From the NCBI GenBank assembly GCA_045613285.1, contig JAZLAQ010000035.1, positions 4,670 through 68,669 on the forward strand: a stretch of 64,000 nt of DNA, given 5' to 3'. Made by a program: the position numbers and the translations under genes. The notes beneath the pieces are model-generated. The model had not been told where the DNA came from and did not search any database. It was given only the letters and a program-made list of their open reading frames with translations. This stretch comes from Alphaproteobacteria bacterium (GTDB lineage Bacteria; Pseudomonadota; Alphaproteobacteria; CAAHEQ01; UBA3637). Positions 58,740 to 59,870 of the stretch are shown piece after piece; the stretch's first letter is position 1; every line of letters begins with the position of its first letter.

Positions 58740-59870
58740 CTAGTTTCGAATACATTCGCTTGTTTCTGCATTATATCGTCTAAGGTTTCCACAAACGGTA
58801 CATTCCGCTTCACTGTCAACTACAACCTTTACTGTATTTGTAAATGAGGTTAATTCACAGGAATAACATTTACCATCTGTTCCCATAAATCTAGGATTGG
58901 CAGTTCCGTCACACATATCGCAAAACACGGATATTGTTGGACCACCTACCGGACTTTCATGGTCACATCGATGACAAACCGGAACACCTCCACTATTGAT
59001 AATAGAAAAGCGAGGTACACCAGAGTCCTTACATGATTGACATCTATCAACTTCTACATATCCATAGGATCCTGATGCTGTACAAGAATAGCACATTCCC
59101 AGATTACTACGAATAGGATTTTCTGGTGGACATTCTTTCAAAATGCAACGTGCTTGATTGTTAAAACCATAATACATCATCCGTTCCGGACATCTGGCGC
59201 ATTCTTCTTCTGTTGATACAAGAGTTGTGGTTGAATTGCAAGTATAACAAACTCCAGTGGTTGTTTTCCAACCATCACAATCAGAATCGCAGTTTTTCCC
59301 AAACCAACCCTCATTACATTCACATCCCTGTGATGTCCAAGTTCCATTTTTACAGACTATTTTTTCATTACAATTATCACCGGTGTAACCACCAGCACAT
59401 TTTTTTTCTAAAGTGTCCCAAAAAATAAATTCAACAGTATTCATATCTTTTGAACAAGAACCGTCGGCAGTGTCATTTATCAACTGTAGATAAGGCATTT
59501 TATATTCCGTATTTTTAATATGTTCACAAACATCTGCCGGTATTTTTGTCACATTTATGGAAAAGTCTGTTTCCGTTCCACTATAATTCCCTTCATAATA
59601 AAATGGATAGAGTTCGTCTATTTGAATGCCGTATGCATCTAAATCCATAACGTTCCCAGATAATAACTGAGACGATGCGACGACAGCCATCTCACTCACA
59701 CTATAAAAAATCGTACTTGCCCGATATTTGCTTATAGCATAGGTATAACTGGTTATTCCGCCAACGGAAATCACGCCAATAATCGCCAAAACCCCCAACA
59801 TTTCCACCATACTGCGTCCAGATTCGGAGTTTGTTTGTTTATTTTGTAAATGTAGTATATTCTTATTCAT
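58740..59870 (-). CDS. Type IVb-pilin-like protein with cysteine-rich repeat C-domain; paralog of 4286..6283
   Basis: Class III signal MNKNILHLQNKQTNSESG|RSMVEMLGVLAIIGVISV (Gly -1, Glu +5, hydrophobic helix); head domain homologous to 4286..6283; C-terminal CxxC-rich repeats; 376 aa. Confidence 0.65.
   Translation of the reverse strand: MNKNILHLQNKQTNSESGRSMVEMLGVLAIIGVISVGGITSYTYAISKYRASTIFYSVSEMAVVASSQLLSGNVMDLDAYGIQIDELYPFYYEGNYSGTETDFSINVTKIPADVCEHIKNTEYKMPYLQLINDTADGSCSKDMNTVEFIFWDTLEKKCAGGYTGDNCNEKIVCKNGTWTSQGCECNEGWFGKNCDSDCDGWKTTTGVCYTCNSTTTLVSTEEECARCPERMMYYGFNNQARCILKECPPENPIRSNLGMCYSCTASGSYGYVEVDRCQSCKDSGVPRFSIINSGGVPVCHRCDHESPVGGPTISVFCDMCDGTANPRFMGTDGKCYSCELTSFTNTVKVVVDSEAECTVCGNLRRYNAETSECIRN

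Follow-up and report, generated by a model that had tools for sequence, protein, structure and literature searches.

The window analyzed here, which is the whole 64-kb stretch of the alphaproteobacterial contig JAZLAQ010000035.1 (GC content, ~36%), contains an open reading frame (ORF) at 58740..59870 on the minus strand whose 376-amino-acid (aa) product best fits the modular type IV pilins as conceived by Raynaud et al. 2021 (PMC8179133). A pilin module (residues 19 to 155) was found joined to non-pilin epidermal growth factor (EGF)-like and CxxC modules (residues 158 to 376), and we hold with high confidence that this is a pilin-type protein carrying a genuine class III signal. The ORF has an ATG start, 5' of which lies an AAAGGA Shine-Dalgarno-like site, and the product is divided as follows.

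59817..59870, minus strand: leader, residues 1 to 18 (MNKNILHLQNKQTNSESG), with predicted prepilin-peptidase cleavage after Gly18.
59406..59816, minus strand: pilin module, residues 19 to 155, with Arg at +1, Glu at +5, the alpha1-N segment, a ~54-residue helix, a four-stranded sheet, and a conserved Cys115/Cys139 pair.
59277..59399, minus strand: EGF-like module, residues 158 to 198, with six Cys in C-x-C-x2-G-W-x4-C spacing.
58743..59255, minus strand: variable C-terminal module, residues 206 to 376, with four tandem CxxC-x(12-19)-CxxC units and four extra Cys.

The N terminus reads MNKNILHLQNKQTNSESG up to the predicted cleavage point and RSMVEMLGVLAIIGVISVGG after it. An 18-aa leader ending in Gly, followed by RSMVE with Glu at +5 (E23) and a hydrophobic helix, had been called in the initial annotation from this single protein, and the motif proved to be kept across the family; Glu at +5 was followed by MLGVLAIIGVISVGGITSY, and the hydrophobic stretch (alpha1-N) spanned ~22 residues. 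The leader had also been called basic, a description that was borne out only mildly, the segment being hydrophilic with K3, K11, and H7 set against E16. In an alignment of 39 diverse N-domains, G18, R19, M21, V22, E23, M24, L25, G26, L28, G32, and C115 were invariant and C139 was nearly so; the features of prepilin peptidase cleavage were thus retained at family level, with Gly18 and Glu+5 present in 39 of 39 sequences. The sequence GRSM[VI]EM[LI]G occurred in 112 of the 120 best database matches, the leaders upstream of it differing in both length and sequence. Among the other eight, seven started inside the motif (late start calls), and P0030 had GRTMVEML. The leaders as long as 125 aa that some database entries show were probably over-extended start calls and were not used as evidence. 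The fixed core across the family was E-S/T-G followed directly by RSMVEML, while the leader varied, and a variable leader combined with a fixed Gly-1, Glu+5, and hydrophobic helix is the pattern expected of a class III signal.

The remainder of the N-domain was predicted to adopt a pilin fold. An AlphaFold2 model of residues 1 to 157, built from an alignment of 39 homologues, had a predicted local distance difference test score (pLDDT) of 89.4 and a predicted template-modeling score (pTM) of 0.76. In it, a 54-residue helix (residues 17 to 70) lies on a sheet of four strands accompanied by one short helix, in agreement with the pilin fold, in which a long N-terminal helix packs on an antiparallel beta-sheet. 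When the model was compared with the PDB by Foldseek, the top six matches were the type IVb pilins CofA and TcpA (probability, 0.99 to 0.66, with weak E values of 0.07 to 0.34), and the best structural matches were CofA, TcpA, and other pilins. The pilin fold on which the initial annotation depended was thus recovered in the predicted head. The model strongly indicates that the first ~155 residues are a pilin module, type IVb-like in fold and bearing the conserved Cys pair. As in type IVb pilins, the leader fell in the range of ~15 to 30 aa, the residue at +1 was not Phe, and the structure resembled those of TcpA, CofA, and PilS. The likeness did not extend to a compact type IVb operon: the gene was an orphan between the DUF6782 and AcrB-like genes, and its homologues were likewise orphans. 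CofA (CFA/III of enterotoxigenic Escherichia coli) and TcpA (Vibrio cholerae) were the closest solved folds, yet they shared only 13 to 14% sequence identity with the pilin module, and the present protein differed from them in the invariant Arg at +1 of its family, a smaller head (~135 aa mature versus ~190), an added 220-aa Cys-rich extension, and a multicopy gene lying outside any such operon.

The 376-aa protein contained 28 Cys, 26 of them beyond residue 155, and eight CxxC motifs. In the EGF-like module, C183-x-C185-x2-G-W-x4-C194 agrees with classical EGF spacing, of the type found in eukaryotic EGF/teneurin repeats, and a CxCxxGW/YxGxxC motif was common to the close homologues P0002 and P0004 to P0007. 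The Pfam model EGF_Teneurin matched the 376-aa protein below threshold (E = 0.011; 16.2 bits versus a cutoff of 24.3), while homologue P0084 scored above the Teneurin EGF thresholds; in a Pfam scan of ten diverse homologues, one had a match (teneurin-type EGF). The CxxC pairs of the four tail units were located at residues 208/224, 260/277, 299/317, and 335/357, and the Cys of these units were invariant or nearly so in an alignment of homologues. A full-length AlphaFold2 model had a pLDDT of ~85 to 94 over the units; the C-domain of this model had no significant match in a Foldseek search of the PDB, and no Pfam family was found for the CxxC-unit region. The number of Cys outside the membrane helix was even both in this protein (28) and in its 665-aa paralog in the window (68), which would fit disulfide bonding of an extracytoplasmic domain, although the spacing is also zinc-knuckle-like. 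Since Foldseek found nothing significant for the C-domain, comparisons with Giardia variant-specific surface proteins (VSPs), furin, and the tumor necrosis factor receptor stay analogies. The Giardia VSPs likewise combine a Cys-rich, CXXC-dense extracellular region with a multigene family and a gut organism, but the present protein had no Pfam VSP match at E <= 1 and no structural match. A homologue tail containing WWSAxNWCxAxGKRL was considered by eye as a C-type lectin, and this idea was dropped after no Pfam match was found.

The family to which the protein belongs was large. A search of 1.84 billion cluster representatives with the family profile gave 6,371 matches at E <= 1e-3, of which 5,305 reached E <= 1e-10 and 704 reached E <= 1e-30. 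At least 500 homologues were retrieved in a database search with the 376-aa protein, and only one of them bore a name (JGI: 'PulG pseudopilin'); at least 567 family loci were found in species-representative genomes. Label and host were taken from 80 of these at least 567 loci: 79 were labelled Alphaproteobacteria, one of these as 'uncultured Azospirillum sp.', and the hosts were represented by ruminant, rabbit, and human guts. The sole non-alphaproteobacterial label belonged to a 3.3-kb contig (L048, JAZLLX010000012.1) from a metagenome-assembled genome (MAG) labelled Acidaminococcaceae, probably a binning contaminant. Up to 6 or 7 loci per MAG were present among the 80 loci, some loci had 3 to 5 copies, and the family was heavily expanded in related gut MAGs, with several to more than 10 copies. 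The family appears to be undescribed, being without a Pfam or NCBIfam model; a search of published papers did not find the GRSMVEML-type motif, and a literature search combining RF32 and pilin was likewise empty.

Family genes were dispersed among housekeeping genes. They lay directly after the secY-adk-rpsM-rpsK-rpoA-rplQ operon in L088, L089, L090, L018, L070, and L075, and near-identical copies occurred between gyrB and alaS-recA (L001), between rplQ and alaS-recA, and between rplQ and CNNM. Because such near-identical copies join different flanks, the family genes stand at synteny breakpoints, a placement that may reflect recombination between paralogs.

The C-terminal modules of the homologues varied widely and included EGF arrays, CxxC arrays, and other Cys-rich tails, most of them without a Pfam family. 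In a human-gut subclade (P0022 to P0028, P0033, and P0092), the N-domains were 96 to 99% identical, the C-domains were 48 to 66% identical (one pair, 82%), and the Cys-repeat module varied in length; judged by these alignments, the pattern is that of a constant carrier with a hypervariable head. At the other extreme of size, short ORFs of 120 to 150 aa encoded the ESG-RSMVEML signal and a small head only, often in tandem. Such arrays, with products of 120 to 147 aa, were found at the following positions.

L043, 15998..18176: four tandem short pilin-only genes.
L045, 8998..10001: two tandem short pilin-only genes.
L056, 8930..10209: two tandem short pilin-only genes.
L063, 13..1269: two tandem short pilin-only genes.

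These short tandem proteins are natural candidates for the major subunit of a filament. A second class III-like protein type, of 620 to 761 aa with an N terminus in which Gly is followed by SIMVEVIAVLGLLG or by AIMLEVVAVLSLMG, was observed at four loci near family genes, including the following.

L018, 13727..16012, minus strand: second class III-like protein type.
L073, 8214..10076, minus strand: second class III-like protein type.

The window itself contained exactly two family members by hmmsearch (E = 6.7e-56 and 1.3e-16), the second of which was the diverged paralog.

4286..6283, plus strand: diverged paralog of 665 aa, with a pilin head as in the 376-aa protein and longer Cys-repeat arrays.

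The database start of this paralog is at Met9, which gives 657 aa. The initial annotation had aligned the two head domains, and their relationship was upheld as real but distant: in BLASTP the heads were 25% identical (E = 5e-7) and the Cys repeats also gave matches, and hhalign of the family profile against residues 1 to 185 of the paralog gave a probability of 98.6% (E = 8e-16). The CxxC repeats described there for both proteins were also found, the paralog having 69 Cys and 18 CxxC motifs, and the stated distance of about 53 kb on opposite strands was measured as 52.5 kb. The signal of the paralog was different, as this protein has NERG followed by VSAVIIIQ at its N terminus, with Gly-1 kept and Glu+5 lost, and a 10-residue insertion in the N-terminal helix. 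It fell in a separate orthologue group of ~650-aa proteins with 39 to 48% identity, all of which had Gly-1 and about half of which had Glu+5 (KTFVEI...), the remainder having S, G, N, D, or I at +5. The context of the ~650-aa gene was not conserved, the gene lying after pyrG in the window and after the atp operon in L087. As a speculation, this conserved and roughly single-copy group might be a better analogue of an initiator subunit than the 376-aa protein is. The loss of Glu+5 with retention of Gly-1 in the paralog and about half of its orthologues recalls GspK-type tip pseudopilins, which is a lead only; it bears on an alternative in which the 376-aa protein would be a pseudopilin-like part of a type II secretion-type endopilus, a periplasmic minor or tip pseudopilin comparable to GspK. 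This alternative is considered improbable, and the 376-aa protein differs from the paralog in having Glu+5.

The initial annotation had reported no pilus assembly genes (tadA/B/C, cpaC) in the window. This held for the assembly machinery, but a prepilin peptidase 11 kb from the 376-aa pilin-like gene had been overlooked.

46927..47613, plus strand: prepilin (type IV leader) peptidase of the A24 family, 228 aa (Pfam Peptidase_A24, E = 1.5e-14).

Its catalytic Asp motifs were Asp106 in D-x5-LPD and Asp169 in GSGDVK, and these motifs were kept in 117 of 118 and 118 of 118 orthologues, respectively; the ~228-aa orthologues were 45 to 59% identical. The arrangement in which the peptidase gene lies between rpoD-dnaG-yqeY and rodZ-prfA-prmC was repeated on two other, distant long contigs, one of them from the BRZ_KG sample, whose MAG also carries a member of the pilin-like family. 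The A24 peptidase gene belongs to the conserved core of the lineage and lies among housekeeping genes outside any pilus operon, and on its motifs the enzyme is a candidate for processing the 376-aa protein. A VirD4/TraG coupling protein was seen near the peptidase on the related contigs L085 and L086.

The full mechanism that we favor, and regard as reasonably probable, is that the 376-aa protein is a minor or tip subunit in a filament of short paralogs and displays a binding module. Its synthesis with a class III signal peptide is strongly indicated. The A24 peptidase would cut after Gly18 and expose Arg+1, and the alpha1-N segment with Glu+5 would allow the protein to leave the inner membrane and join a type IV filament. 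The bulk of this filament would consist of the 120- to 150-aa pilin-only paralogs of related genomes, with the large protein present as a low-abundance, probably tip-located subunit whose EGF-like and CxxC-repeat module, presumably stabilized by disulfides or metal, would serve as a binding module on the exterior of the cell. The gene is one copy of a multigene repertoire that joins a near-constant pilin 'carrier' to C-terminal modules that are shuffled and diverge fast. Such an arrangement suggests that ligands of the host, mucus, or partner cells are recognized variably and/or that immunity or proteases are evaded in the gut. An adhesin role of the 376-aa and 665-aa proteins, as had been proposed initially, is plausible only by analogy.

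Several observations weigh against this mechanism. At the level of the signal, an invariant +1 Arg is atypical among pilins, the Pfam model N_methyl (PF07963) matched the 376-aa protein below threshold (E = 0.17; 12 bits versus a cutoff of 21.2), and an NCBIfam search including TIGR02532 gave no match. The sub-threshold N_methyl score, together with CxxC-x(12-19)-CxxC spacing of a kind typical of zinc ribbons, would be accommodated if the resemblance were due to chance, with an ordinary signal anchor or Sec signal at the N terminus and the CxxC units forming cytoplasmic zinc ribbons. That explanation is strongly disfavored and very improbable, the conserved core described above being the pattern expected of a class III signal, and the signatures were likely missed because the RSMVEM sequence is atypical. 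The window peptidase furthermore was without the Cys-rich N-terminal loop of bifunctional PilD, and this four-Cys loop was missing from nearly all A24 orthologues, which makes N-methylation of Arg+1 doubtful.

At the level of assembly, the larger window ORFs scanned against Pfam were mostly housekeeping genes and included no assembly ATPase, platform protein, or secretin, and hmmsearch found no short major-pilin gene in the window. No assembly machinery was found within 10 kb of ~90 related loci, a search covering a small part of each genome. In 1.3 Mb of loci, neither tblastn with the A24 peptidase nor a Walker-A regular expression nor a GspE consensus gave a match, a result that is uninformative given the small genome portions covered. 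When the ORFs within 10 kb of 85 loci were clustered, there was no recurrent neighbor, as only the pilin-like family itself recurred; the next largest cluster was present at 7 of the 85 loci and consisted of housekeeping genes. As a lead only, in a 2025 study of genome-reduced gut lineages that include the alphaproteobacterial order Rs-D84, to which the window might belong, type IV pili were reported only for a verrucomicrobial family and not for Rs-D84 (PMC12306168); many 'hypothetical membrane-bound proteins' were noted for Rs-D84 in the same study (PMC12306168).

The lack of assembly genes in the window and near ~90 loci and the survey result are what would be seen if the protein were processed without being polymerized. 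It would then be a surface or periplasmic protein that uses the signal and the A24 peptidase for insertion, processing, anchoring, or loose bundling and that forms a Cys-rich variable coat, in some analogy to archaeal sugar-binding proteins bearing class III signals. The very large and scattered family, the position of the peptidase gene among housekeeping genes, and the tolerance of Glu+5 loss in the orthologue group of the 665-aa protein also speak for this explanation. Against it, Glu+5 and the whole of alpha1-N were invariant in the main family, which is expected for packing in a filament core and is unneeded for a mere anchor; the short tandem pilin-only genes resemble filament building blocks; and the negative results for machinery cover a small fraction of any genome. 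A nonpolymerized coat protein is considered unlikely on balance, and the filament subunit is retained as the preferred reading.

Among known systems, PilB and PilC of Streptococcus sanguinis have the same architecture as the 376-aa protein: the filament presents a functional module to which a small pilin module is joined. The modular-pilin concept is supported experimentally for S. sanguinis PilB, and many undetected modular pilins with modules lacking database signatures have been predicted (PMC8179133). The modules of the present family differ in being EGF-like domains and CxxC repeats rather than vWA or lectin domains, its pilin module misses the IPR012902/N_methyl signature that was used for the modular-pilin survey (PMC8179133), and there are many paralogs per genome, compared with one or two for the modular pilins described before. 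Initiators of the CofB/TcpB type, which the initial annotation had taken as the model for a tip protein, are single-copy. The closer comparison with them was abandoned: the 376-aa gene is neither operon-encoded nor single-copy, and by Foldseek its C-domain has no match to the beta-repeat/beta-sandwich of CofB. The protein thus falls outside the CofB/TcpB family, and it may work like CofB only in the loose sense of a large pilin.

The surroundings of the 376-aa gene and other genes of the window included the following.

57371..58609, plus strand: DUF6782 putative metallopeptidase, 412 aa, converging on the 376-aa pilin-like gene.
60135..63959, minus strand: single 1,274-aa ORF with an AcrB/RND transporter domain (profile positions 230 to 1020) and a C-terminal OEP/TolC-like domain.
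28108..30540, minus strand: VirB4-like (CagE_TrbE_VirB) ORF, 810 aa.
30932..32047, minus strand: second, adjacent VirB4-like (CagE_TrbE_VirB) ORF, 371 aa.
40439..40960, minus strand: MORN-repeat protein.
16521..17093, minus strand: Sel1/TPR-repeat protein.

The DUF6782 gene was not found beside family homologues elsewhere. The AcrB-OEP fusion is unusual, and the first ~230 profile positions were missing, so the gene may run past the window end or be split. The two VirB4-like ORFs indicate a type IV secretion system, and eukaryote-like repeat proteins such as MORN and Sel1/TPR proteins are common in host-associated bacteria. In the 5' region of the 376-aa gene, a C6 run (59948..59953 on the plus strand, read as G6 in coding orientation) and, next to it, a T7 run were observed just upstream of a TTGACA-like hexamer, the C6 run being one of four G/C runs of at least 6 in the 64-kb window. 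The run is too short to support a call of phase variation, and a scan for promoters and terminators gave nothing exceeding shuffled expectation.

More broadly, and only tentatively, the large repertoire could be a variable surface or recognition system of uncultured gut Alphaproteobacteria that are possibly genome-reduced and partner-dependent, in which a near-constant type IVb-like carrier bears hypervariable Cys-rich modules in the manner of Giardia VSP-type coats. Processing in such a system would be by a minimal, housekeeping-embedded A24 peptidase, assembly would be by noncanonical machinery or would not occur, and recombination between paralogs may drive genome rearrangement. If the modular-pilin reading is true, the family would represent the modularity of type IV pilins at its extreme, with one carrier and tens of interchangeable Cys-rich heads in an uncultured gut lineage. 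As Pfam N_methyl and TIGR02532 do not detect it, the family would escape surveys for pilins or modular pilins, as well as metabolic reconstructions in which 'no pili' is the conclusion. A defined substrate-enzyme pair would be available in the Arg+1 class III signal and the short PilD-like peptidase without a Cys-rich loop. The family members would furthermore be concrete candidates for the attachment of these bacteria to hosts or partner cells, and the pattern of constant N-domains and variable C-domains would offer a natural system of surface-antigen diversification in commensals.
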